Origin: Elusimicrobia bacterium HGW-Elusimicrobia-2
Lineage (GTDB): Bacteria > CG03
Assembly (NCBI GenBank): GCA_002841685.1
Contig: PHAM01000001.1
Coordinates: forward strand, 7,086-71,085
Length of the DNA: 64,000 bases
Direction of reading: 5' to 3'
Shown here: piece by piece, positions 3,289 through 51,377 of the stretch
Layout: every line of letters starts with the position of its first letter
Position numbering within the stretch: position 1 is the stretch's first letter
Made by a program: the position numbers and the translations under genes
Notes under the pieces: generated by a model
The model's input: only the letters and a program-made list of their open reading frames with translations
Databases searched by the model: none
What the model was told of the DNA's origin: nothing

Positions 3289-5324
3289 CGCGTGTTGTCT
3301 TTAAACCACAGCCCCACGAAGAACAGAGCCGTAAAGATCAGATAATAATTTTTCATCGCCGGATGGTAAAAGCCCGAGTCGTCAACGGGCGCGGGAATAT
3401 CCGCGGCGCGGAATAAATCGCTTCCCAGATATTTTCCGAGCGAAAGGCGCGAGATCTCACGCAGATGAGAATGTTTGGCGGAAGTGTTTTCTTCTTCTAT
3501 GCTTTTTTCCGTGACCGTGAATGAAAAGACCTTCTCCGCGCGCACACCCCTCTCACCCGAAACAGATATCCTGACGCTGTGCGGGCCGGGCTCCTCTATT
3601 ATCTTTTTCACCACAAAAACGCCCGGCGACACCATAACCGGCGGAAGATAAGATTGTCCCCCGGGCGCGACATGCCGGACAGTGACGCCGGAATGCAACG
3701 CGTTCCTCAACTGTATCCGCAAAAGCAAGTCCTCTCCGATTTTATAATTCTTTCTGCCCGAAAGACTTATCTCATCAAGCAGGGGAGAACGCGTCAGCCA
3801 CGCGAAAGAATTCTTAAAGAATTCCTGGTAAAAATACGATGTTTCCGGGCCCGCGAAAAAAAGGCGCCAGAGGCTGTTTGTCAAAAGCGTCATGACCCGG
3901 CCCTTACCCTCGTTCCTGACGGCGGCAACAGGGTCGCCGCCGGAAGTTGTCAGAACACTCTGCGCATCAGGCGCGAGCGACGAGGCGGGAGACATGCCCT
4001 TGAGCGGCACATCTCCGGCTGCGGAAATACCGGAAATAAGGGAAGTTACGGGATGGGAGGGAGAGGCCCTGAGAAAAAATTTTTCTTCGCTGAAAGATCC
4101 GCCCGGGCACTCTGTGACCGGAAGAATCTCCCCGAGCGGGCTTTTAAAATAATTCCCGTTACTGAAAAGATCTTCTCCGCCTATGAGCATAAGAGCCCCC
4201 CCTGATCTAATATGGCGAAGGAGTAGCGAGAGATAATCGGGGCTTATGAATTTTGTGTAATCAAAATTAAGGAGTATCACAAGATCGTAATTCGTGATAT
4301 CGTTTAAAAAGATTTCCCGCACGGGAAAAGGTATAAGAGAAAGTTTGTTGTCGGGGAAAGGAACATAATCCGAAGGGTTTCTCAGTATCACGAAAGAGGT
4401 GAGGTCTATCCTCTTGTCGGATTTTATCAGAGCCCGCAGGTTGCTGTATTCCCAGCCTGGCCGGCCGCTTATAAAAAGAACTTTCATCAGTGATTTGAAA
4501 ACCGACACCCTGAAAAAATCGGAGTTGTTCCCAGGATTAGTGTCGGAAGGCAGAAGCTCAACATTATATCTGATATTATCCCCCGCCTCACCCGGGATAA
4601 ATTCGACATCGATATCTTTGACAGTTTCACCTTCCGAAAAAACGACCGGCTTTTCGCCGCCTTTCTCCCCAGGACGGCCTATTCTTATACGCGCCGGGCC
4701 TCGACCGGGCGGGCACTCCACGCGCACACGCGCTTTTGAAACGGAGCCCTGAAACACCTTTTCGGGATACTCCAGTATTTTGAGCGACATGTCATCCTCA
4801 AGAAGCTGTCCGAACCCGGCGCAATGCACCGGTTTTGAGAAATAACAGGACTCGCTCGTCGTGTCTCGGCCGTCGGAAAGAAGAAGCATGGAGCCGCCTT
4901 CCGGCAAAGATGCTGTTATTTCGGAAGCGCTGCGGGAGATAAGCGAGGCGCCGCCGGAGGCGCGGGAATTGAAAAACGCGCTTTCCCCAAGCAGGCGCGG
5001 CTCGGAATCAAATGTGTAAAAAACCAGCTTGAATTTCTTCTTAAGATCCGGCAATTCCCTCCGCAGCGCTCCCTTCGCCGCCTCAAGCCGGGAAGACTTG
5101 CCGTTTTTAACAGCCATACTCGAGGAAGTATCAAGGCAAACGGCCAAAACAGGAGCGGGCGCGCTGCTCTTTTTTCTGATCGCGGGGTTGGCGATGAGAA
5201 AGAAAACAACCGCGAGCGCCGCGAGCCTGTAAAAAACTCCGCGTCGGCGTATCGTCAGATAGGCCAGCAGCGCGAAAAATACAAGAGTCAGATCTTCAAT
5301 CATTATATAAAGCAAACGCCTCAC
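3285..5324 (-). CDS. BatA-like von Willebrand factor A domain membrane protein
   Basis: N-terminal TM region followed by vWA MIDAS motif 'LDTSSSM' (DxSxS); 679 aa; tight operon with DUF4159 and DUF4175-like genes. Confidence 0.7.
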   Translation of the reverse strand: MRRLLYIMIEDLTLVFFALLAYLTIRRRGVFYRLAALAVVFFLIANPAIRKKSSAPAPVLAVCLDTSSSMAVKNGKSSRLEAAKGALRRELPDLKKKFKLVFYTFDSEPRLLGESAFFNSRASGGASLISRSASEITASLPEGGSMLLLSDGRDTTSESCYFSKPVHCAGFGQLLEDDMSLKILEYPEKVFQGSVSKARVRVECPPGRGPARIRIGRPGEKGGEKPVVFSEGETVKDIDVEFIPGEAGDNIRYNVELLPSDTNPGNNSDFFRVSVFKSLMKVLFISGRPGWEYSNLRALIKSDKRIDLTSFVILRNPSDYVPFPDNKLSLIPFPVREIFLNDITNYDLVILLNFDYTKFISPDYLSLLLRHIRSGGALMLIGGEDLFSNGNYFKSPLGEILPVTECPGGSFSEEKFFLRASPSHPVTSLISGISAAGDVPLKGMSPASSLAPDAQSVLTTSGGDPVAAVRNEGKGRVMTLLTNSLWRLFFAGPETSYFYQEFFKNSFAWLTRSPLLDEISLSGRKNYKIGEDLLLRIQLRNALHSGVTVRHVAPGGQSYLPPVMVSPGVFVVKKIIEEPGPHSVRISVSGERGVRAEKVFSFTVTEKSIEEENTSAKHSHLREISRLSLGKYLGSDLFRAADIPAPVDDSGFYHPAMKNYYLIFTALFFVGLWFKDNTR

Positions 5325-5342
5325 AGCAGAATCCCAACATCG

Positions 5343-6065
5343 TTACCATGATTTCAGTTTCCTTTCTATAAAATCCCTGTGGATGATGTCTTTTTTATAG
5401 GTGCCGGTCAGAGAATACATCACGATATTCACAGTGATTTTCACGGCCTCCAGCCGCTGGGCTTCGCCCCCGGGATAACAGCTGTAAATAAATCTTCCGC
5501 TCTCATCCCTGGCCCAGGCGCCGAAAATATCGTTCCGCGAATAGACGATCACCCAGCGCCCGTCTATCCGAACGCCGTAAAGCGAGGGAGAAACCGAATT
5601 GCGTCCCGCGGCCTTCGGCTGCAGATAGAAACTCCTGAATATAACATCATCCTCCGGTATTTTTTCAAGCGCTGCGGCGGGGAAAATTCCGGCGCTGAAA
5701 TCTTTAACCGAGCGGTAAAAATCATCAAGCCCGTAGGACTCGGTCTCATCTATAAACAGAAAACCGCCGGATGAAAGATGCTTGGCCAGAAGAGCCGTTT
5801 CCTTTCTCGTAAAATCCTTCAGCGACCCCTTTCCCGTAACACAGAGAAAGGGATAATCAAAGATACCCTGTCCCACCTCAAGATAAACCGCATCCGTTGG
5901 GGGATCTATGGATGTGGACGAGGCGAGATATTTCAGGACGGCTTCAACAGAGCTTGACAGCGGCGAGGAGCCGCCGCTTTTCTTTATTATGCAAAGCTCA
6001 AAAAGATCTCCGGCGAAACAGCATGCGGACAGGAGCAAAAAAAACAGTATTTTAAAAACTTTCAT
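5343..6065 (-). CDS. DUF4159 domain protein (Bat-operon associated)
   Basis: 240-aa secreted protein (signal peptide); sequence pattern and gene context (next to vWA/BatA-like) typical of DUF4159. Confidence 0.6.
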   Translation of the reverse strand: MKVFKILFFLLLSACCFAGDLFELCIIKKSGGSSPLSSSVEAVLKYLASSTSIDPPTDAVYLEVGQGIFDYPFLCVTGKGSLKDFTRKETALLAKHLSSGGFLFIDETESYGLDDFYRSVKDFSAGIFPAAALEKIPEDDVIFRSFYLQPKAAGRNSVSPSLYGVRIDGRWVIVYSRNDIFGAWARDESGRFIYSCYPGGEAQRLEAVKITVNIVMYSLTGTYKKDIIHRDFIERKLKSW

Positions 6066-8095
6066 TCTCCGTTCTTCACAAGCGCGAGGTTGTATTTTAA
6101 ATTCTCATCATCGGGATTTATAGACAGGCCCTTTTGAAAAAATTCTTTCGCCCCCGCGATATTGCCCGATCTCATCTCAATAAGGCCGAGTTCGTTCAAA
6201 GCGGCGTAACTAACAGGGTTTATGTTAAGGCATTTTCTAAACGCGGCCTGCGCCTCAGCCGTTTTACCGAGCTTGCCCAGCGACAGCGCCAGATTATAAT
6301 ATCTCACATCATCCGGCGTGAGAGAGACAGACTCGGCGAAATGACGCGCGGCAGAATCATAATCCCTCTCCCCAAAATCAAGAACGCCCAGGTTATTCCA
6401 GGCCTCCGGCAAGGCGGGATTGATACTGATTGCCGCTTCATATGACTTACGGGCTTCGTCTCGCCTGCCGAGCCCCGCCCAGACAGGCCCCATATTGGTC
6501 AGGAGCCAGTCTATGTCTTTGCCTAAATGAGAACATATGCGCGCGGTGCCGGGACTTGGGTTTTTTAGCGCCCTGAAATAATAATCAAGGATCTCAATCG
6601 AACGCACCCTATAGTTTTGAAGGCCTGAAGTACGCCAGAAAAAAGCGGGATTGGGTCTGTTTCGCAAAGCGTCTTTCGTCCACAGCAAGCCGTCAAAACC
6701 ATAATCCGGAAAAGGCAACTGGGATTTTGAAAAAGCGAAAAAACTTTTTTCCGGGCCCGAAAACATAAACTTCATCTTCGCCGCATAGCCTCTGGCGGGG
6801 GAAGGATTCCATAAACCGGAAGTTTCCCGCGGCGGATCTTCTCCGTAAAAAGACGGGAAAACGGCGCCGTAAGACGTGTATACCGGCGGCATTTTCACTT
6901 TTTGCGCCCATTTTTTGTAGGCGAGCGCGAATATCAGGTCATCTCCCACCGCGCCTTTCTCTATAATGAGAGCGTTTCCCCGCGGCACGGCCCTGATGAC
7001 GGAATCCGCGAAATCGGAAAGCGAATAAAAATTTCTCAGCGATTGCCCTTTTATGGAAAAAATGAACAGCAGTGCGAATGCCCATACGGTGGATGTGAAA
7101 ATTTTCTTCCGACGGAGAAAGCCCCAAAGCCCTCCGGCGAGCATAATCAGGATCGCCGAAGGCAGAAGAAAGAACCTCTCCGTTATCGCCTCGATAAAAG
7201 CTCCGCTTGAAGAGGAAAGCCCTGCGGCCATGAAAAAAAGCGGGCCGCTGAAAAGAAAACAGATAAAAAGAAAATGATTAAACCCGTCCGCTTTTCTGAA
7301 ATGAGAAAAATACAAAAGAGGGATAAAAATAAAGAGAGGCCCGAAAAAAATAAAACCCAGGCGGGGGTAATCCAGAAGAGCATTGAGCGTAACATGATGA
7401 TGCGATCCGTGAAGGGCGAAAGTGCCGTAATCCCGCCTAAGGAGCACATCTATCCATCGGCCGAAGGTAGAGGGATCACCCCAATTGAACACGGCGCCGC
7501 TCTGCGCGCGGACGATTAAAAATAAATTAGCGTAAAAACCAGTGATGGCCGCGCAAAAAACCATAAGGACAAAAGGGAAATCAAACATTTTTCTTTTAAT
7601 GAGCAGATATATTACTCCCGGCAGAAGGAGGATCAGCGTCTGATGGTTGGCCAGTCCGAGCCCGAAGAGGAAAGCCGCGGCCAGAGCGTTTTTTTTAAAA
7701 GGCGAATACAGCAGGTATATTATCGCGCATGCGAAAAGAAGATTAAGCGTGAAGACCTCGCAGGCCCCCGCTGATGAGAACACGGCAGGAGCAAGCGCAA
7801 AATACAGAAGCAGGCTCGCCGATGTAAAGCGGCACATAAAGAGCATCGCGGAAAACACAAAGAGCGCATTGATAAAATTCATGCGGTAGGCTATATTGCC
7901 CGCGGGAAAAATCTTTGACAAAGCCGCGGTGATTATGACAAAAACCGGATAGCCCGGCGGGTGAGCCACCCCCAGTGTTGATGAGGCGGCGATGAGCTCG
8001 CCCGAATCACCCACATATACGCCGGGCGCAAGATTGTATATAAAGATGAAAAACGCCGCCACTGCCGCGGCGAGGACGCTTCTTTTGATCACCAC
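6062..8095 (-). CDS. DUF2723 / GT-C fold (PMT/ArnT-like) membrane glycosyltransferase-like protein with C-terminal TPR repeats
   Basis: N-terminal ~450 aa polytopic membrane domain ('GDSGELIAASSTLGVAHPPGYP' DUF2723-type N-terminus) followed by multiple TPR repeats; 4-nt overlap with downstream gene. Confidence 0.7.
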   Translation of the reverse strand: MVIKRSVLAAAVAAFFIFIYNLAPGVYVGDSGELIAASSTLGVAHPPGYPVFVIITAALSKIFPAGNIAYRMNFINALFVFSAMLFMCRFTSASLLLYFALAPAVFSSAGACEVFTLNLLFACAIIYLLYSPFKKNALAAAFLFGLGLANHQTLILLLPGVIYLLIKRKMFDFPFVLMVFCAAITGFYANLFLIVRAQSGAVFNWGDPSTFGRWIDVLLRRDYGTFALHGSHHHVTLNALLDYPRLGFIFFGPLFIFIPLLYFSHFRKADGFNHFLFICFLFSGPLFFMAAGLSSSSGAFIEAITERFFLLPSAILIMLAGGLWGFLRRKKIFTSTVWAFALLFIFSIKGQSLRNFYSLSDFADSVIRAVPRGNALIIEKGAVGDDLIFALAYKKWAQKVKMPPVYTSYGAVFPSFYGEDPPRETSGLWNPSPARGYAAKMKFMFSGPEKSFFAFSKSQLPFPDYGFDGLLWTKDALRNRPNPAFFWRTSGLQNYRVRSIEILDYYFRALKNPSPGTARICSHLGKDIDWLLTNMGPVWAGLGRRDEARKSYEAAISINPALPEAWNNLGVLDFGERDYDSAARHFAESVSLTPDDVRYYNLALSLGKLGKTAEAQAAFRKCLNINPVSYAALNELGLIEMRSGNIAGAKEFFQKGLSINPDDENLKYNLALVKNGE

Positions 8096-42338: not shown

Positions 42339-43358
42339 TTATCTCATTGTCAAAGCCATAATGGCCTTCTGGGCATGAAGCCTGTTTTCCGCCTCATCAT
42401 TCACTATGGAAATCTTCGGATCGTCAATAAGCGCGTCCGTAACTTCAAATTTCCTTCTGGCCGGCAGACAGTGCATATACACGGCGCTTTCATTGGCTTT
42501 CTCAAAATGCTTATGAGAAATACACCAGTCTTTTTTATAATTAGGCCCGACTTTGGCGTGCTTATCAGGGTCACGCGCCCATGATTTGGCGTATATGACA
42601 TCCGCGTCTTTAGACGCTTTCCATATATCATGCTCTATGTTGAGAGAGCCGCCGCTGACCGCTGCGGCTTTTTTGGCATAGTCAACATAATCCTGATCAA
42701 CATCATAAAGTCCCGGCTCATCCGGATAAGCCAAAGTTATGTTCATTCCCAGAGCGCAGCCCGCGGATATCATCGTCTGCGGAACGCCCGCCGATTTTGC
42801 TCTCTCGTCATAAGCCCATGACATAACAATTTTCTTTCTTCTGACAGATTCCATTCCGCCGAACTTTTCTATCATCGTCAGAATATCGCCCATGATCTGG
42901 CAGGGATGTTCCTTGTCATCCAGCATATTGATGATCGGCACTTTTGAGAATTCCGCAAGACCTCTCAACACTTCGCGGGCATCGCCATACGCATAGGTTT
43001 CCGCACCCATCTGAGCTTTAAGATTATACAGCCGGATAGCAAAACCGTCCAGAAACCTTGATATCATCTCGGCCGTGTCTTTCCACGATTCCTTATGGGA
43101 AAGCTGAAGTTCCTCGGGGCTATATGTCTGTCCATTTCCTCCGAGCTGGGAAATACCGCTTGAAAACGAGAGCCTCGTCCTCGTTGACGGCGAAGCAAAA
43201 AGCATACCAAGATTTTTGCCGGCGAGAAGATGCTTCTGGCTTTCGCCGATGGCATTTCTCAATTTCAAATCCCTCGCGACCTCAAGTATGGTTTCAAGCT
43301 CCTCCTTACTAAAGTCCCTCACGCTGATAAAATCTCTACCCTTAAGGTTAGTGATCAT
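42339..43358 (-). CDS. YgeW-family transcarbamylase (unknown-substrate carbamoyltransferase)
   Basis: 'SPSTRTRLSF', 'HPCQIMGD', 'KKIVMSWAYDERAKSAGVPQ...MNITLAYPDEPGLYDV...DADVIYAKSWA...KDWCISHKHF...VYMHCLPA' matches E. coli YgeW block by block (recalled from memory); lacks OTC 'DVWxSMG'. Confidence 0.7.
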   Translation of the reverse strand: MITNLKGRDFISVRDFSKEELETILEVARDLKLRNAIGESQKHLLAGKNLGMLFASPSTRTRLSFSSGISQLGGNGQTYSPEELQLSHKESWKDTAEMISRFLDGFAIRLYNLKAQMGAETYAYGDAREVLRGLAEFSKVPIINMLDDKEHPCQIMGDILTMIEKFGGMESVRRKKIVMSWAYDERAKSAGVPQTMISAGCALGMNITLAYPDEPGLYDVDQDYVDYAKKAAAVSGGSLNIEHDIWKASKDADVIYAKSWARDPDKHAKVGPNYKKDWCISHKHFEKANESAVYMHCLPARRKFEVTDALIDDPKISIVNDEAENRLHAQKAIMALTMR

Positions 43359-43393
43359 AATAATCCTCCTTTTATTTCTTTCCTTTAAAACCC

Positions 43394-44617
43394 TTAAAAC
43401 ATATTTTTAAGCCATTCAATAAGGCCTTTTCTGCGTTTGCGGTGGCCGGGGGCGGTCAGCGACGGAGATTCCTTGCTCACATCGTATTTGAGCAGACCCA
43501 GGACAGATGTCCATGAAACATCGTCCACAACAGCCGCGTCGCCCGCGCAATTGGCGGGGTAGCCCAGCCGCGTCTGAAAACCGAGCTCCGCGCGCACATA
43601 ATCCTCCATCCCCGGCAGTTTGGCTCCGCCGCCGACAAGAATACAGCTCGGCACGAGATCAGGATTGATCTTCATAGCCTCAAGTTTTCCTTTGATGCCG
43701 CTCTTGCCGAAAATATCCGCCAGACGCCCGCTTATTATTTCCGATATATCTTTAAGGCTCACCTCGTCCTTGGTCCTGCCGTCGATCCTTGTGACCTCTA
43801 TTTTGCCTTCTTTGGGTATGTGCGCCTGTGTGGCGAAACCGAAATCCTCTTTGATCCTGGCCGCTTCGAGGCGCGAAGATTTTATCTCCCTCGCTATATC
43901 GTTGGTTATGTAATCGCTGCCGTTGCGGATCGCGAAAAAGCCTCTTATCCCGCCTTTATTAAAATAGGATGTTTCGCAAAGGCTGCCGCCTATGTCTATG
44001 AGTATGCAGCCGAGAGCTGTTTCATCGTCAAGAAGAACAAGTTCCGCGGCGGCCAGTGACGAGAGGATGGTGTTCTGTATCTCAAAACCCGCCTTCTCCA
44101 CGCATTTCCTTATATTGGTCAGCATTGACGCTTTGGCGATAATATTATGCACATTCACCTGAAGATGTTTCGCCGCCATACCCTTGGGATTCATTATCCC
44201 CCTCTGATTATCCACCATATACTCAAGGGGTATCGTGTGTATTATCTCATCCTCGGAATTCGGTATGCTGCTTCGCGCGGCCTGGAGCACCTGTTTCACC
44301 TCGTTGAAGCTCACCTCCTGGTCCTGAGACATGACCGCTATGGCGGCGTGATGATCCAGGCTTGATATGTGCATGCCGTGCACGCCGAGTGAAACGTAAT
44401 TAATATTGGTTTGCGCCTTGTCTTCAGCGCTTTCTATGACTTCTCTTATGGATTCGACAGTCTGGGGAATATCTATGATGATTCCCTCTCTTATGCCTTT
44501 GCAGGGCCTGGAATCATAGCCGAGAACTTTTATCTGCTCACCGACGACATCGCCTATCACGCATTTGATGTGCGACGACCCTATTTCAAGTCCGGCCCTG
44601 ATGCTTTCACCTGTCAT
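43394..44617 (-). CDS. ftsA: Cell division protein FtsA
   Basis: Actin-like ATPase motifs 'GLEIGSSHIKCVIG', 'ILIDIGGSLCETSYF', 'VLVGGGAKLPGM'; 407 aa. Confidence 0.9.
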   Translation of the reverse strand: MTGESIRAGLEIGSSHIKCVIGDVVGEQIKVLGYDSRPCKGIREGIIIDIPQTVESIREVIESAEDKAQTNINYVSLGVHGMHISSLDHHAAIAVMSQDQEVSFNEVKQVLQAARSSIPNSEDEIIHTIPLEYMVDNQRGIMNPKGMAAKHLQVNVHNIIAKASMLTNIRKCVEKAGFEIQNTILSSLAAAELVLLDDETALGCILIDIGGSLCETSYFNKGGIRGFFAIRNGSDYITNDIAREIKSSRLEAARIKEDFGFATQAHIPKEGKIEVTRIDGRTKDEVSLKDISEIISGRLADIFGKSGIKGKLEAMKINPDLVPSCILVGGGAKLPGMEDYVRAELGFQTRLGYPANCAGDAAVVDDVSWTSVLGLLKYDVSKESPSLTAPGHRKRRKGLIEWLKNMF

Positions 44618-46409: not shown

Positions 46410-46823
46410 CTAAAAAGTATCAGAACCGTCACCATACTTTTCCCTTGTGAATGTTGTTTTTCCTGTTATTTTGCCAAGGATAATATCGGCTTTTCTGCAA
46501 AGCATAACAAATTCTTCTTGCTCAAATCCGCTATGTTTCAAATTGTTATATATTCGGTGCCGTATCTCTACATATTCTTTGGATAACCTGATTGATTTAT
46601 CTCGATCCGAACTTGTTGGAAGTTGTTTGCTTAGACGATAGAGTTTTTTTGCAGCAACATAGCTTGCGTGTGCAATTTGAACACATTGCCAATTTAAGAC
46701 TTTATTAGGAGAACGAAGCGAAATAAAGACCGACTCCTGTAAGAAGTCCTTGATACGGCAGCACAAATCAAAAAAACCTACAAATGCTAAAATGCTTCCA
46801 ATTATCTGAATTGGTGATATCAT
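46410..46823 (-). CDS. Hypothetical membrane-anchored protein, translationally coupled to the type IIG RM gene
   Basis: 137 aa, hydrophobic N-terminus 'IQIIGSILAFVGFF', start 1 nt after RM gene stop; no recognisable domain. Confidence 0.45.
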   Translation of the reverse strand: MISPIQIIGSILAFVGFFDLCCRIKDFLQESVFISLRSPNKVLNWQCVQIAHASYVAAKKLYRLSKQLPTSSDRDKSIRLSKEYVEIRHRIYNNLKHSGFEQEEFVMLCRKADIILGKITGKTTFTREKYGDGSDTF

Positions 46824-46824
46824 T

Positions 46825-49800
46825 TCATTTAATCGGCCATTGGGGGGTGGTTTGGTCGATTTCGGTCATCAGGCGGGAGGTTTCTTTCAGCACAACTACT
46901 ATTTTCTGCCAGTGCAGAACTTCGTCAAATGTCAGGAAACGGCCTTTTCTGCTTTTCAGCCATTTGTCCAAAACCTGATAGCCGCCGATATAGAAATTCC
47001 AGACTGCTGGTTCTATTCCTTCAAAATACTGTTCTTTGTTGATATAAATTCTTTTTGTTTTTTCTTCGTAATTTACTTTCACGACTTCGTTTTTTCCGGA
47101 AATCGGAAATCTTGTGATGAGTTTTTCCAGTGCAGGTGATTCCATCAGGTGAAGTGAGACAAGTTCCTTTCCTTTTTTAACAAGGTTTTTGAAACGTTCC
47201 CTGTCGGAAGTCAAAGGCGCACGGGGAAAATCTATTTTCAAAAATTCGGCATATCTTTTTCTGTATTCCGGCGAATGAAAGACCGCATAGATGTAATAGA
47301 AAATATCTTCGGGGCCGAATGTCTTTTTTAAATCCCCCTGGCCGTCTAAAACAAAATCAAGTTTCAGTTTCCCGCTGACTTCCCTGACAAACTCCGGCTT
47401 AATATTCGGCTGACGCTTTGATTCTGTCTCGTTCTGTTTCTCATCAGGATAAAGATACAACGGAAAAATATATCCTCTTTCTTTCGTTTTATTTGACACA
47501 TAACAGTCATCTGTAATACTGTTTGTCGCTAAAATATGCCGCCAATTATTTCCTGATAATTGACGACATAAGTACAATGCAACATTATTCCCAAAAAGCA
47601 TATGACGCATAACTTTTTCCCTTACACGCCAAACAACTGTTGGATGATAATAAATATTCCTTGTATCAAACGGTCGATATAGCAATTTATCAAAATAATC
47701 TTTCCAATTTTCAACACTTGTTAATTCTGCTCGCGCTTTTGATACTCTCCACGCATAATTTTCTGATAACTTAAACTTTTCTTTTATTTCTATATCGCTG
47801 AAAGTTTTGTCTCTGAAACATTCTATTCTTTCTTTTAACGGTTCCTTTTCAAAATCAATTACGAATTTATCTCGCGCAGTAACAATGCCTGTGCAGTTTA
47901 CCGGAAAAATATCTGTGATTTTCCAGTATTTTTCGTATTCACTTCGTCCTTCTTCGTTTCTTGGAATAAAGAAGTAATATGGACTATTGGGGCTGAGTTC
48001 TTTATAATTTGTTTTATTAATATCGTTTTCTGAAAGAATTTCATATTTACTATCCCTCGTCCCCCACAAATCTGCATAATAAATTTTTGCCGGGCCTTCG
48101 GCTTTCTGTTTTTTTACGAATAAATTTATTGCAACACCCTGCTGTATGTCAAAAACATTTTCGTCTTTTGTGCCGTCGGGACATTTCTCCTTTTTCTTCG
48201 CATTGCCGTGCAGATTGAGAATATATATTTCCGAAAATGTATTGAGCAAAGACTGTCTCATTCCACGGAATGTGGGATTATCAAGGTAAGCGTGATTTGT
48301 TATTATTCCCACAACGCCCTGGCCTGTCCTGTCAATCTTCCACTGCGCGAAGCGGATGAACTTCACATAATCGTCCTGTAACCAGACTTTTCTCTCGTTC
48401 AAAGGTTTACCGTCAATGAATTTATAATCGTCTATTAGTTTTGTTATCCATTTTCCCATATTCGCGGATATACCGGAATAGGGGGGATTGCCGAGGATTG
48501 CCATTATCGGCACTTCGTTTTTTACTCTTGCGGCCTGGGCGGATTCTTCGGCTATGAACTGCGCGAATAGAGGCAGGTCTTTGTGCTCTGCTTCGCTTAG
48601 AGTGTTTGTGAGATAAATTCCAAGACGCTGGTCTGAATCAAATTTGTAGCCGGTCTCCTGCAGGAGGAGTCCGAGTTTCAAATGAGCGACCGTATAAGGC
48701 GCCATCAGAAGTTCAAATCCGAAGACTCTTTTCAGGAGATGCTCCGCTACATATTCGTCCCACACTCCCTTTTGTCCGTCTTTTTCCATCTTGTCATAGA
48801 TCAGTTTTATGACAGAGTACAGGAATGTTCCCGTTCCGCAGGCAGGGTCAAGAATAAATGTCTTTGAGTCCGCAAGCCCCTGCGGCCGTCTGAAACTCTT
48901 CTTAAGAATACTGTCAAGAGAACGGACAATGAATGAGACCACAGGTTCCGGCGTGTAGTAAACCCCGCGGGATTCCCTGAGCTTGGAGTCATAGGCGGCA
49001 AGAAATGTCTCGTAAAAATGGACGACAGGGTCTTCTTTCTTTGTCTTTACCCCGAAATCCTTTAAAATCTCCTTGATGTCGGATACGGAAAGAAGCTGGG
49101 CGAGGTCGTCAACAAGCCAAGCAATCCTGTCGTCAAGGTCGGGGCCTGCGATGTGGTTGAAAAGTTTCCTTAAGAACGGGTTTGTCTTTGGAAGGAGAAA
49201 AGCCGAGTGCTCACGGGTAAATTCTTTTTCGTCCGGCATATTGCACCGCGCCGCAAACAATCCGTAGGCGATTGTCTGGCTGTATAAATCGGCAAAGCTT
49301 TCCTGCCTTAAGCCCTGAATCAGTATTTCACGAAAGGCTTCATACTGGGAATGGAGAGTCCCTTTTTCCTGCTCTTTTTCAAAAGCCGCATTTATCAAAT
49401 CCCGGATCATTTGGGTTATCTGAGCCATACGCACCGCAAGTTTTTTAGGGCTTTTTATTTTTTCAGGAAGGACACAGAGAAAAGATTGGATAATTTTAAT
49501 AAACTGATCTTCATTCCTGTGCAGTAGGTTGACCTTCCCGGAAGAATCACACTCCCCTATGATTACGGTTTCCGCTCTTTCCCCGTTTACGTAGCGTCGG
49601 AATTCAAGATAATCAGTCAGTATTAAATTTGATAATGATGTGCGGTATCTTTTTAACTGCTCTGATTTTTCTATCTCGTCCAGACTCTTGCCTATGTCTT
49701 TCGTTTCAATATATCCAACCGTCAGTTTTTTCTTTGTGATGATAAAATCCGGAGCGCCGCAAGCGACTCTCTTGGGTTCGTTTATGGCAGAAATCCCGGC

Positions 49801-49914
49801 TTCAAAAGATTCAATCAATGTTTTCAGCGCCGGGCGATATGTATGCTCGCCCGCCTGGCCTGTCTTAAGGTTTTTCTGTATCTCCGATAAGTAGTTTTTT
49901 ATGTTAGCTGTCAT
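46825..49914 (-). CDS. MmeI-family single-polypeptide type IIG/IIL restriction-modification enzyme (endonuclease + N6-adenine methyltransferase + TRD)
   Basis: N-terminal PD-(D/E)xK 'PDFII...YIETKDIGKSLD' (cf. MmeI 'IEMKSRGKDLD'), SAM motif I 'DPACGTGTFL' (MmeI 'DPACGCGNFL'), catalytic 'ILGNPPYSG'; 1029 aa. Confidence 0.85.
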   Translation of the reverse strand: MTANIKNYLSEIQKNLKTGQAGEHTYRPALKTLIESFEAGISAINEPKRVACGAPDFIITKKKLTVGYIETKDIGKSLDEIEKSEQLKRYRTSLSNLILTDYLEFRRYVNGERAETVIIGECDSSGKVNLLHRNEDQFIKIIQSFLCVLPEKIKSPKKLAVRMAQITQMIRDLINAAFEKEQEKGTLHSQYEAFREILIQGLRQESFADLYSQTIAYGLFAARCNMPDEKEFTREHSAFLLPKTNPFLRKLFNHIAGPDLDDRIAWLVDDLAQLLSVSDIKEILKDFGVKTKKEDPVVHFYETFLAAYDSKLRESRGVYYTPEPVVSFIVRSLDSILKKSFRRPQGLADSKTFILDPACGTGTFLYSVIKLIYDKMEKDGQKGVWDEYVAEHLLKRVFGFELLMAPYTVAHLKLGLLLQETGYKFDSDQRLGIYLTNTLSEAEHKDLPLFAQFIAEESAQAARVKNEVPIMAILGNPPYSGISANMGKWITKLIDDYKFIDGKPLNERKVWLQDDYVKFIRFAQWKIDRTGQGVVGIITNHAYLDNPTFRGMRQSLLNTFSEIYILNLHGNAKKKEKCPDGTKDENVFDIQQGVAINLFVKKQKAEGPAKIYYADLWGTRDSKYEILSENDINKTNYKELSPNSPYYFFIPRNEEGRSEYEKYWKITDIFPVNCTGIVTARDKFVIDFEKEPLKERIECFRDKTFSDIEIKEKFKLSENYAWRVSKARAELTSVENWKDYFDKLLYRPFDTRNIYYHPTVVWRVREKVMRHMLFGNNVALYLCRQLSGNNWRHILATNSITDDCYVSNKTKERGYIFPLYLYPDEKQNETESKRQPNIKPEFVREVSGKLKLDFVLDGQGDLKKTFGPEDIFYYIYAVFHSPEYRKRYAEFLKIDFPRAPLTSDRERFKNLVKKGKELVSLHLMESPALEKLITRFPISGKNEVVKVNYEEKTKRIYINKEQYFEGIEPAVWNFYIGGYQVLDKWLKSRKGRFLTFDEVLHWQKIVVVLKETSRLMTEIDQTTPQWPIK

Positions 49915-50135: not shown

Positions 50136-50999
50136 TTATTTATCATTTTCCGACATAGTAAACTTCAATTCGGCTGTGATAACATTGTTATCGTCAATTA
50201 TATTTTTTTCCATGCTTGTTTTTTCTTCTATTGCCAAAATTACTTTTTTGATTCTTTTTACATTACCCGTCCCAATACCATGAACCTTAATATAATCAAT
50301 CCCATATTTTAACCTTGTCAATATCTCCTTTTCAATATCTTCTTCCTTCATTTCAAAGCTCACAAACACTGAGCACGGCAAATCATCGACATAGGGATCG
50401 TATAAGCTAAGAAACTTTGTTTTAATTTTGTCTTCCGTCGTATATATTTTGGATAATGCTTCATACATTTCCTTAAAGTCTTTTTCATAATATCCTGCTG
50501 TGCATAAATTTGTAATATTAGCGCCTCTCTTGCCATACTTGTCCCGAATATCCCTCTTCATATCCCTCACTTCCTGATTTCTGTGTTCCAAAAATACCTT
50601 CTTGATATACATAGCTTGCCTGAGTATTATTAAATCTACTGAGGAAATTTTATTTTGGTAAAATTTTAATATTGCTTGAACATCCGGCTCCGAATCCTTC
50701 TTTTTTATATCTTCAGCCCAATCGTTGTCTTTTGTTGTAAGAAAAATAGGTTCACCTTTAACTGATTCCTTGGCGCTGTCCTTTAAAAGAGTATTTAAAA
50801 TATTTCTGTCGTCCTGACTAAGCTTTTCAGGATTAATAATCGTTTTGCCATTTTCTGACATAACGCTTTGACTGCTTTGACAGTTAATCACAACGTTGCA
50901 ATTATTAAAAGTATTGCCGTCGCCTTTTTGGATGCTATCTGCTATTTTTGCATCAACATTGTTAGTGATGAGGCCTTTGAAAAATTCTTTCCAACCCAC
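50136..50999 (-). CDS. Hypothetical protein (island cargo); weak Smr-like 'HG(K/I)GTG' motif near C-terminus
   Basis: 287 aa, AT-rich codon usage, C-terminal 'IDYIKVHGIGTGNVKRIKKVIL' loosely resembles second Smr-domain motif; overlaps upstream small ORF (ATGA). Confidence 0.45.
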   Translation of the reverse strand: MGWKEFFKGLITNNVDAKIADSIQKGDGNTFNNCNVVINCQSSQSVMSENGKTIINPEKLSQDDRNILNTLLKDSAKESVKGEPIFLTTKDNDWAEDIKKKDSEPDVQAILKFYQNKISSVDLIILRQAMYIKKVFLEHRNQEVRDMKRDIRDKYGKRGANITNLCTAGYYEKDFKEMYEALSKIYTTEDKIKTKFLSLYDPYVDDLPCSVFVSFEMKEEDIEKEILTRLKYGIDYIKVHGIGTGNVKRIKKVILAIEEKTSMEKNIIDDNNVITAELKFTMSENDK

Positions 51000-51244
51000 T
51001 ATTTGTTGCGAGTTGCCACTTTAAAAATTGATGGCAAATCTGATTTTATAAACAATTCTGACCCTTTTTGTACCCCCGCAAAATCATCCAGCAATAACTC
51101 TTCTCCATCCGGGGTTAAAACTCTTTGCGCGAGGTTATCTGTTTCAACTACATATCCGTCTGCATCAACTGTTTTACCAAATATTTTTAAAATAAATTCT
51201 TTCGTTTTTTGATCTTCTCTAAAAGTGATAACTTCTTCACTCAT
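50999..51244 (-). CDS. Hypothetical small acidic protein (island cargo)
   Basis: ~81 aa from ATG 51244 (AAAGGAG RBS 6 nt upstream); coupled to downstream 287-aa ORF. Confidence 0.4.
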   Translation of the reverse strand: MSEEVITFREDQKTKEFILKIFGKTVDADGYVVETDNLAQRVLTPDGEELLLDDFAGVQKGSELFIKSDLPSIFKVATRNK

Positions 51245-51377
51245 TGTCATCTCCTTTATTTTTCATATCGCCCTTTCATCATCATAATTGTTCATTTATA
51301 CCAATTTGTAAAAGCCATGTAAAGCCCCATGATGAGTCCACCCCGATTGTCAGGATAAATTTCAGCAAAATGAACTT

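Follow-up and report, generated by a model that had tools for sequence, protein, structure and literature searches.

Two adjacent open reading frames (ORFs) of 81 and 287 amino acids (aa), encoded in a 64,000-nucleotide (nt) stretch of contig PHAM01000001.1 from Elusimicrobia bacterium HGW-Elusimicrobia-2, form a self-contained, horizontally mobile module that is compositionally foreign in every host and has crossed between bacteria and archaea. This whole stretch is referred to as the window, and coordinates without a locus name count from its first letter. The two genes invariably lie side by side in the same orientation and are tightly coupled. The partners have diverged together, and purifying selection acts on both. 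Both are real genes, far beyond chance, as 558 clusters of homologs, ratios of nonsynonymous to synonymous substitution (dN/dS) of 0.14-0.15 and strict pairing demonstrate, and together they represent a protein-family pair covered by no curated library. As to function, we tentatively favor a conflict-type module, toxin-antitoxin-like or abortive-infection-like, and offer this toxin-antitoxin or defense reading as a hypothesis rather than as a finding.

An earlier reading of the window by a model, made from the letters and their translations alone (the original prediction), had singled out the two ORFs. Both are confirmed on the minus strand (Table 1), and a Shine-Dalgarno-like site supports the 81-aa start of the small ORF: this start at 51244 is preferred because the AAAGGAG site leaves the alternative ATG at 51250 without a spacer. 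The small protein is acidic, and its predicted isoelectric point (pI) below 5 is borne out by a value of 4.62. The ATGA overlap proposed at position 50999, in contrast, does not exist. Direct reading gives the junction TAGTG, in which the stop codon TAG of the small ORF (51001-50999) and the start codon GTG of the large ORF (50999-50997) overlap by 1 nt. Tight coupling, from which co-translation had been proposed, is nevertheless a trait of the family, albeit without ATGA in the window. In a set of 87 non-redundant loci, 10 show ATGA-type overlaps of 4 nt, 13 overlaps of 1 nt, and 47 gaps of 0-10 nt; the two genes overlap or lie ≤10 nt apart in 70 of the 87, a tight arrangement that also characterizes type II toxin-antitoxin systems.

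Pairing extends over the entire family. A hidden Markov model of the small protein locates the small ORF directly upstream, on the same strand, in every genome locus having upstream DNA (40 genome loci), and the same arrangement recurs in 64/64 metagenome loci having upstream DNA. Pairwise distances of the two partners are correlated (r=0.71, permuted maximum 0.11). Between the window and a close relative (locus L009), the small gene has a dN/dS of 0.14 and the large gene one of 0.15, compared with 0.13-0.21 for murB, ddl, and ftsQ, while synonymous divergence (dS) of the pair (0.65-1.07) is comparable to that of the flanking core genes (0.74-1.14). Comparable dS together with low dN/dS indicates vertical co-divergence of the pair under purifying selection. 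In one locus (L049, 6001-6793, + strand), the large gene is broken into two ORFs (6001-6579 and 6584-6793) next to an intact small ORF, which reflects either a pseudogene or an assembly error.

An exhaustive profile search retrieves homologs of the large protein in 558 clusters at 50% identity. Of the cluster representatives, 406 reach E≤1e-10, and nearly all are 250-300 aa long; a word-indexed search returns just five close clusters, every one from Elusimicrobia-type metagenome-assembled genomes (MAGs). That neither ORF belongs to a recognized family, as the original prediction stated, holds against the curated libraries: neither window protein has a match in Pfam, NCBIfam, PADLOC, PHROGs or PDB sequences, and both hit 0 families at E≤1 among the 5027 models of PADLOC-DB 2.0. 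Likewise, 117 aligned members of the large-protein family show no consistent Pfam or NCBIfam family, and the small-protein family (38 members) has no Pfam or PDB relative. The two proteins share no internal homology either (hhalign probability 2%). The sensitive profile searches and structure prediction proposed to clarify the pair give a predicted fold for the C-terminal domain of the large protein and no match to a curated family.

The module is found in a wide range of hosts. Archaeal hosts comprise Woese-, Nano-, Aenigm-, Pace-, and Micrarchaeota and one Thermoplasmatales archaeon, bacterial hosts Patescibacteria, Saccharimonadia, Bacteroidota, Gammaproteobacteria, Clostridia, Bdellovibrionota, Lentisphaerota, and two unrelated Elusimicrobia lineages, and archaea and bacteria are intermixed in the distance tree of the family. 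In all loci compared (34/34), the pair is AT-richer than its flanks, with a mean difference of 8.2 points. This bias persists at synonymous sites: in GC-richer hosts, the G+C content at third codon positions (GC3) is 0.17-0.36 in the pair versus 0.46-0.61 in neighboring genes, and within division clusters the pair (0.17-0.34) is foreign to its neighbors (0.46-0.54) as well. In the window (50136-51244) and in L009 (7419-8524) alike, pair GC3 is 0.26-0.36 beside flanks of 0.49-0.61, at a dS of ~0.65-1.07; as pair GC3 has not ameliorated despite this divergence, its AT-richness seems to be actively maintained.

The immediate surroundings of the pair in the window have a history of their own. The segment 46.5-51.4 kb has a G+C content of 30-45%, compared with ~50-54% in its surroundings, and the original prediction had placed the pair in a single island together with a restriction-modification (RM) gene ~220 bp downstream. 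The distance, measured as 221 nt, and the foreign composition are both borne out, but pair and RM gene are two separate insertions. Upstream of the pair lies murB, and relatives with 71-84% identical proteins keep the same murB-small-large order. Two of these relatives, L009 and L005, have nothing in the slot behind the pair, and ddl-ftsQ-ftsA follow directly; in L012, the slot holds a ParB_N/HTH_ParB gene (1690-2475, + strand), and in the window and L001-L004 it holds a Type IIG RM gene together with a 137-aa ORF. By blastn, window positions 50164-46288, comprising the RM gene and the 137-aa ORF, stand for 186 bp of L009 (8499-8684). This replacement shows that the RM cassette inserted separately and after the pair, in a variable slot behind it. 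Within this Elusimicrobia lineage, the pair has been passed on vertically at its place between murB and ddl, without a link to the RM gene. Among close Elusimicrobia relatives, the slot between pair and ddl resembles an insertion hotspot.

Beyond this lineage, an unbiased all-against-all census of neighbors in 43 independent clusters, ~30 of them with at least 2 kb of flank, yields only two neighbor families that occur in three lineages, namely Type IIG RM enzymes and tyrosine recombinases. An association with integrases was rejected, as one of the three tyrosine recombinases is XerD-like and probably a housekeeping enzyme. Type IIG RM is thereby the only specific neighbor family recurring in three independent clusters. 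The window enzyme combines N6_Mtase and Type_ISP_C domains (1060 bits against PADLOC REase_MTase_IIG), and its two further homologs are found at most 2 kb away from the pair in unrelated, distant lineages. The homolog in L020 is 38% identical and located 237 nt downstream of the pair on the same strand, which preserves the order and the ~230-nt spacing of pair and RM gene seen in the window, while the homolog in L099 shares 42% identity along its entire length. On the Aenigmatarchaeota contig of L020, a DUF6602 protein gene (1778-2626, + strand) precedes the pair and the Type IIG RM homolog (4120-5295, + strand) follows it; all these genes are AT-rich and may form a small archaeal defense islet. 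From this recurrence, the pair might be taken for an accessory or a regulator of the Type IIG RM enzyme beside it. We regard this as most improbable. About 90% of the independent loci have no such RM gene nearby, and the close relatives keep an intact, selected pair without it (L009, L005) or with the ParB-like gene instead (L012). Moreover, Type IIG restriction enzymes are single-polypeptide systems. The co-occurrence of homologous pairs with RM genes that the original prediction wished to see checked is real in two further, distant lineages, but the pair is not dependent on an RM neighbor.

The architecture of the large protein was predicted with AlphaFold2 from the 117-sequence alignment (mean predicted local distance difference test (pLDDT) score 86, ~97 over residues 100-280); a first model built from four close homologs (pLDDT 52) was discarded. 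The model suggests an N-terminal helix (residues 3-12), a low-confidence Asn-rich linker, a small β-hairpin and helix (36-77), a six-helix domain (89-206) and a C-terminal βαβαββ domain (210-280). The N-terminal helix is amphipathic, with a mean hydrophobic moment of 0.47 versus 0.31 in control segments, and its pattern M-[SGA]-[FWL]-[LFW]-[DE]-K-L-K-x-[LI]-[FLIV]-K is present in 99/117 members. In a Bacteroidota subclade (L032, L039, L047, L134), a basic start of the large protein (MPSKKKSSKK, MPNTHHQKKK) replaces this helix, and the small partner has a distinct N-terminus, LLFTEKALPLILEAFGK, and a C-terminal EGKY. The six-helix domain has no PDB match, neither by fold nor by sequence profile. 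For the C-terminal domain, DSSP assigns to the model strands 210-213, 236-242, 263-270, and 273-280 and helices 219-231 and 244-260, at a pLDDT of ~97. In and near the HGxG loop of this domain, H240 is retained in 115 of the 117 members, G241 in 106, G243 in 112, and N246 in 111. Further positions conserved throughout the family are F196, F212, and KYG (231-233).

The C-terminal string IDYIKVHGIGTGNVKRIKKVIL, which is confirmed in the 287-aa protein, had been read as a weak echo of the second motif of Smr nuclease domains. The Smr domain is a βαβαββ sandwich with LDXH/DxH as its N-terminal motif and HGXG or TGXG in loop 3; its families 1 and 3 carry HGXG, and the His of this motif contributes to the nuclease activity of MutS2 (PMC3200294). 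Part of the resemblance stands. The defining Smr fold (MutS2, SmrB, N4BP2) is predicted for the C-terminal domain, and its near-invariant HGxG sits in the equivalent loop 3 between β2 and α2, as in families 1 and 3. Alba and IF3-C, however, have the same fold, which is thus not Smr-specific. Additionally, many genuine SMR domains lack DxH (PMC10897456), and its absence by itself would be compatible with a divergent Smr endonuclease or ribosome-collision sensor that is inhibited by the small acidic protein. DxH is nonetheless catalytic in SmrB, and the many MutS2-type SMR domains that have lost it bind collided ribosomes without cleaving, i.e., they are reported as binders rather than nucleases (PMC10897456). 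As the original prediction had noticed for the first Smr motif (LDLHG), LDXH/DxH after β1 is absent, and this holds for the whole large-protein family, whose β1 consensus PFAVFV[S/N/H]x.M contains no conserved Asp or His. The 287-aa protein also differs from Smr proteins in having no MutS, KOW, or CUE domain partners. At the sequence level, the window protein does not match Pfam Smr (PF01713) at E≤1, a single one of the 117 members does so at a noise-level E=0.008 among 20 unrelated single matches, and PDB searches with the full-length and the domain-restricted profile bring up no Smr chain at E≤10. Smr membership was accordingly rejected at the sequence level and downgraded to a resemblance in fold class, and we consider an Smr-type nuclease or collision sensor very unlikely.

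By structural comparison of the model, Alba is a nearer neighbor than Smr. The predicted C-terminal domain superposes closely on Alba (PF01918), and Alba, SpoVS, Pop7, TusA, and IF3-C all rank above Smr. Membership in Alba by sequence is not supported, with no Pfam match among the 117 members and none in PDB profile searches; to the Alba/Sso10b superfamily, including SpoVS and RNase P/MRP Pop7-Rpp20, the domain is alike in fold and shows no sequence similarity. It departs from Alba in sharing its polypeptide with an amphipathic N-terminus, a linker, and a helical domain of 120 residues, in carrying HGxG with a near-invariant His, and in having an obligate small partner gene.

The overall layout recalls a different protein. 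In SepF, the FtsZ membrane anchor of bacteria and archaea, residues 1-12 form an amphipathic helix that is followed by a linker and a C-terminal core (PMC8178401), and the large protein may share this succession of N-terminal helix, flexible linker, and C-terminal α/β core. Its gene moreover lies occasionally beside ftsZ or in division and cell-wall (dcw) clusters. Such genes flank the pair, co-oriented, in 5/60 independent clusters: murB/pair/ddl-ftsQ-ftsA in the Elusimicrobia clade of the window, murD-ftsW-murG-ftsA-ftsZ/pair in Patescibacteria, ftsZ/pair in an archaeon, mraY-murD-ftsW-murG-(ParE toxin-antitoxin)-x-pair in L137, and RNase J/pair/ftsK-RodZ-like in L140. In L137, a 77-aa ORF and a ParE-toxin gene (5253-5746, + strand) follow murG just upstream of a 208-aa ORF and the pair, and the dcw cluster is broken by several small cassettes, as in the window.

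These contexts, the architecture paralleling SepF (PMC8178401), and the stable vertical inheritance under purifying selection inside a dcw cluster would fit an accessory cell-division or envelope factor, in which a SepF-like large protein binds FtsZ or another divisome component and the small protein serves as its partner. We judge this explanation somewhat unlikely, though more probable than the Smr and RM alternatives. The association was seen post hoc, and neighbor families are expected to recur by chance among ~60 contexts. FtsZ adjacency, which started from two striking cases, was dropped as a defining trait since chance recurrence is expected and 80 more loci brought no increase, leaving it at 2/100 clusters after the sample had been tripled. 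In structure, Alba is a far better match than SepF, and SepF (PF04472) shows no sequence similarity in Pfam or PDB searches. The large protein is twice the size of SepF, has an extra helical domain and is always accompanied by the small ORF. Further, the family is rare, patchy, and horizontally transferred between domains, with a foreign GC3 even inside division clusters, and the ParE toxin-antitoxin pair in the same dcw gap of L137 suggests that these clusters are merely tolerated insertion sites.

A conflict-type role of the pair is favored because the cassette is autonomous, patchy, foreign in composition, and recurrently located near RM, toxin-antitoxin, and mobile genes. It recurrently shares insertion sites with genes of conflict systems, among them Type IIG RM and a ParE toxin-antitoxin pair. 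Its associations with Type IIG RM and with division genes are both above naive expectation. The module resembles type II toxin-antitoxin and two-gene abortive-infection modules in being an autonomous, translationally coupled cassette with a small acidic partner, as well as in its patchy distribution, AT-richness, lack of fixed neighbors and occasional proximity to RM, toxin-antitoxin, or integrase genes. No conserved third gene accompanies the pair. Other neighbors include an IS240 transposase, DUF6602, a weak NERD match, and one prophage-like stretch.

Several results weigh against a role in conflict. The 132 genes flanking 38 diverse loci fall into 131 different Pfam families of mostly core functions, and PADLOC detects among them only sporadic cases (single DRT, REase II, and SoFic matches plus helicase and TatD cross-matches). 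Most loci, including those at ftsZ, aEF-2/aEF-1α, infB, aminoacyl-tRNA synthetase (aaRS) genes, and ftsK, are core contexts unrelated to defense islands, an outcome that the original prediction had itself named as speaking against a defense module. No recognizable toxin, antitoxin, or operator-binding or other DNA-binding regulator domain is detectable in either protein. With a mean pairwise identity of 43% against 33%, the small protein is the more conserved of the two, and an antitoxin more conserved than its partner is unusual. Relatives are absent from 2.9 M IMG/VR viral contigs in a motif-limited scan and from 50,697 INPHARED phage records and 72,556 PLSDB plasmids. Phages, plasmids, and viruses are the usual places where toxin-antitoxin and defense genes are common. 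A phage or plasmid origin of the module was rejected on the basis of the same searches, and the BFVD viral structure library contains no structural neighbor beyond the generic fold. The more conserved small partner, the lack of recognized domains and of relatives on plasmids and phages, and the missing PADLOC match also set the pair apart from type II toxin-antitoxin systems. A prior description of an Alba-type toxin-antitoxin or defense module was not found in literature searches.

Translation-related and nucleic acid-related genes occur among the operonic neighbors, which include infB, a DEAD-box helicase, Spt5, aaRS genes, UvrD, uracil-DNA glycosylase, and a RadA-like gene. In a Nanoarchaeota MAG (L041, 3461-8323, + strand), the pair sits exactly between aEF-2 and aEF-1α of the conserved translation-factor operon, co-oriented with both. 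Translation genes dominate small DPANN and CPR (candidate phyla radiation) genomes, and the association with EF-2/EF-1α, infB, aaRS, and Spt5 genes was for this reason judged uninformative.

The products of the pair would be synthesized at a fixed ratio and assemble into a complex. Via its N-terminal amphipathic helix, the large protein may be held at the membrane, while its Alba/Smr-like C-terminal domain could bind nucleic acid or a phosphate-bearing ligand. The HGxG loop presumably lies next to a set of conserved polar residues in the helical domain (D122, K148, R158, N161, N164, Y170, and E172), which have an enzyme-like character. The small acidic protein would then either restrain the large one or serve as its cofactor.

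A more far-reaching possibility, which we consider unlikely, is a cross-domain mobile module built on a membrane-tethered Alba/Smr-fold protein that is controlled by its highly conserved small partner and acts on a target common to bacteria and archaea, either the FtsZ divisome or membrane-held nucleic acid. It could constitute a transferable accessory division anchor or a division-blocking immune or addiction system without known counterpart. In a related scenario, the cassette would lack an integrase and spread by homologous recombination between the highly conserved core genes that repeatedly surround it (ftsZ, EF-2/EF-1α, infB, murB/ddl, ftsK). There is a modest chance that the pair, a two-gene mobile module on a known fold class, is something categorically new.

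Irrespective of its role, a gene pair from the dark matter of sequence databases now has boundaries, conserved motifs, and a confidently predicted fold for one domain, and it spans hundreds of sequence clusters in DPANN archaea, Patescibacteria, Bacteroidota, and other mostly uncultivated lineages. A conflict system of this kind would introduce a new effector architecture, combining a membrane helix, a helical domain without PDB match, and an Alba-like HGxG domain, and would be at work in bacteria and archaea alike, including ultra-small symbionts that presumably have few defenses. A role in division, in turn, would make it a rare case of a horizontally traded divisome accessory. At 1.1 kb, the module is small enough to be tested directly in E. 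coli.

Table 1. Features of the gene pair and its surroundings in the window.
Feature	Position	Strand	Remarks
Small ORF, 81 aa	50999-51244	minus	ATG start; acidic, pI 4.62; obligate upstream partner
Large ORF, 287 aa	50136-50999	minus	GTG start; pI 5.94
N-terminal amphipathic helix of large protein, residues 2-13 (GWKEFFKGLITN)	50961-50996	minus	conserved pattern
Six-helix domain of large protein, residues 89-206	50382-50735	minus	signature YGxRGxNIxNLC[ST]AGY[FY]E (155-172); near-invariant D122, K148
C-terminal βαβαββ domain of large protein, residues 207-282	50154-50381	minus	predicted Alba/IF3-C fold class (AlphaFold2 model)
HGxG loop H240-G241-I242-G243, between β2 and α2	50271-50282	minus	codons CAT GGT ATT GGG
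Shine-Dalgarno-like AAAGGAG	51251-51257	minus	6 nt before ATG at 51244; read from sequence
Promoter-like site TTTACA-17-AATTAT, murB/small-ORF gap	51284-51312	minus	9/12 matches; weak evidence only
Type IIG RM gene, downstream neighbor	46825-49914	minus	context only
137-aa ORF	46410-46823	minus	abuts 3' end of RM gene (RM stop codon begins at 46825)
Inserted RM cassette, ~3.9 kb between pair and ddl	46410-49914	minus	RM gene and 137-aa ORF

The promoter-like site in the gap between murB and the small ORF is one of 10 such sites observed in the region, compared with 6.1 expected from shuffles. Flanking direct repeats, a terminator or an Rfam element were not found in 45.5-52.5 kb. The 137-aa ORF of the RM cassette is AT-rich (GC3 0.30) and has no Pfam match (DUF5490 at E=0.03 only); homologs are absent from all retrieved loci, and the cassette with this ORF is missing from L009. 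Another difference between the close relatives concerns the far side of ftsA, where an additional segment of ~600 bp with a 127-aa OTCace_N fragment gene separates ftsA from the ornithine carbamoyltransferase (OTCase) gene in L009 (11579-12187) and L005. The window lacks this segment at ~43343-43395. The ftsA-OTCase region contains two full OTCase-like paralogs, which are followed by an amino-acid kinase gene.

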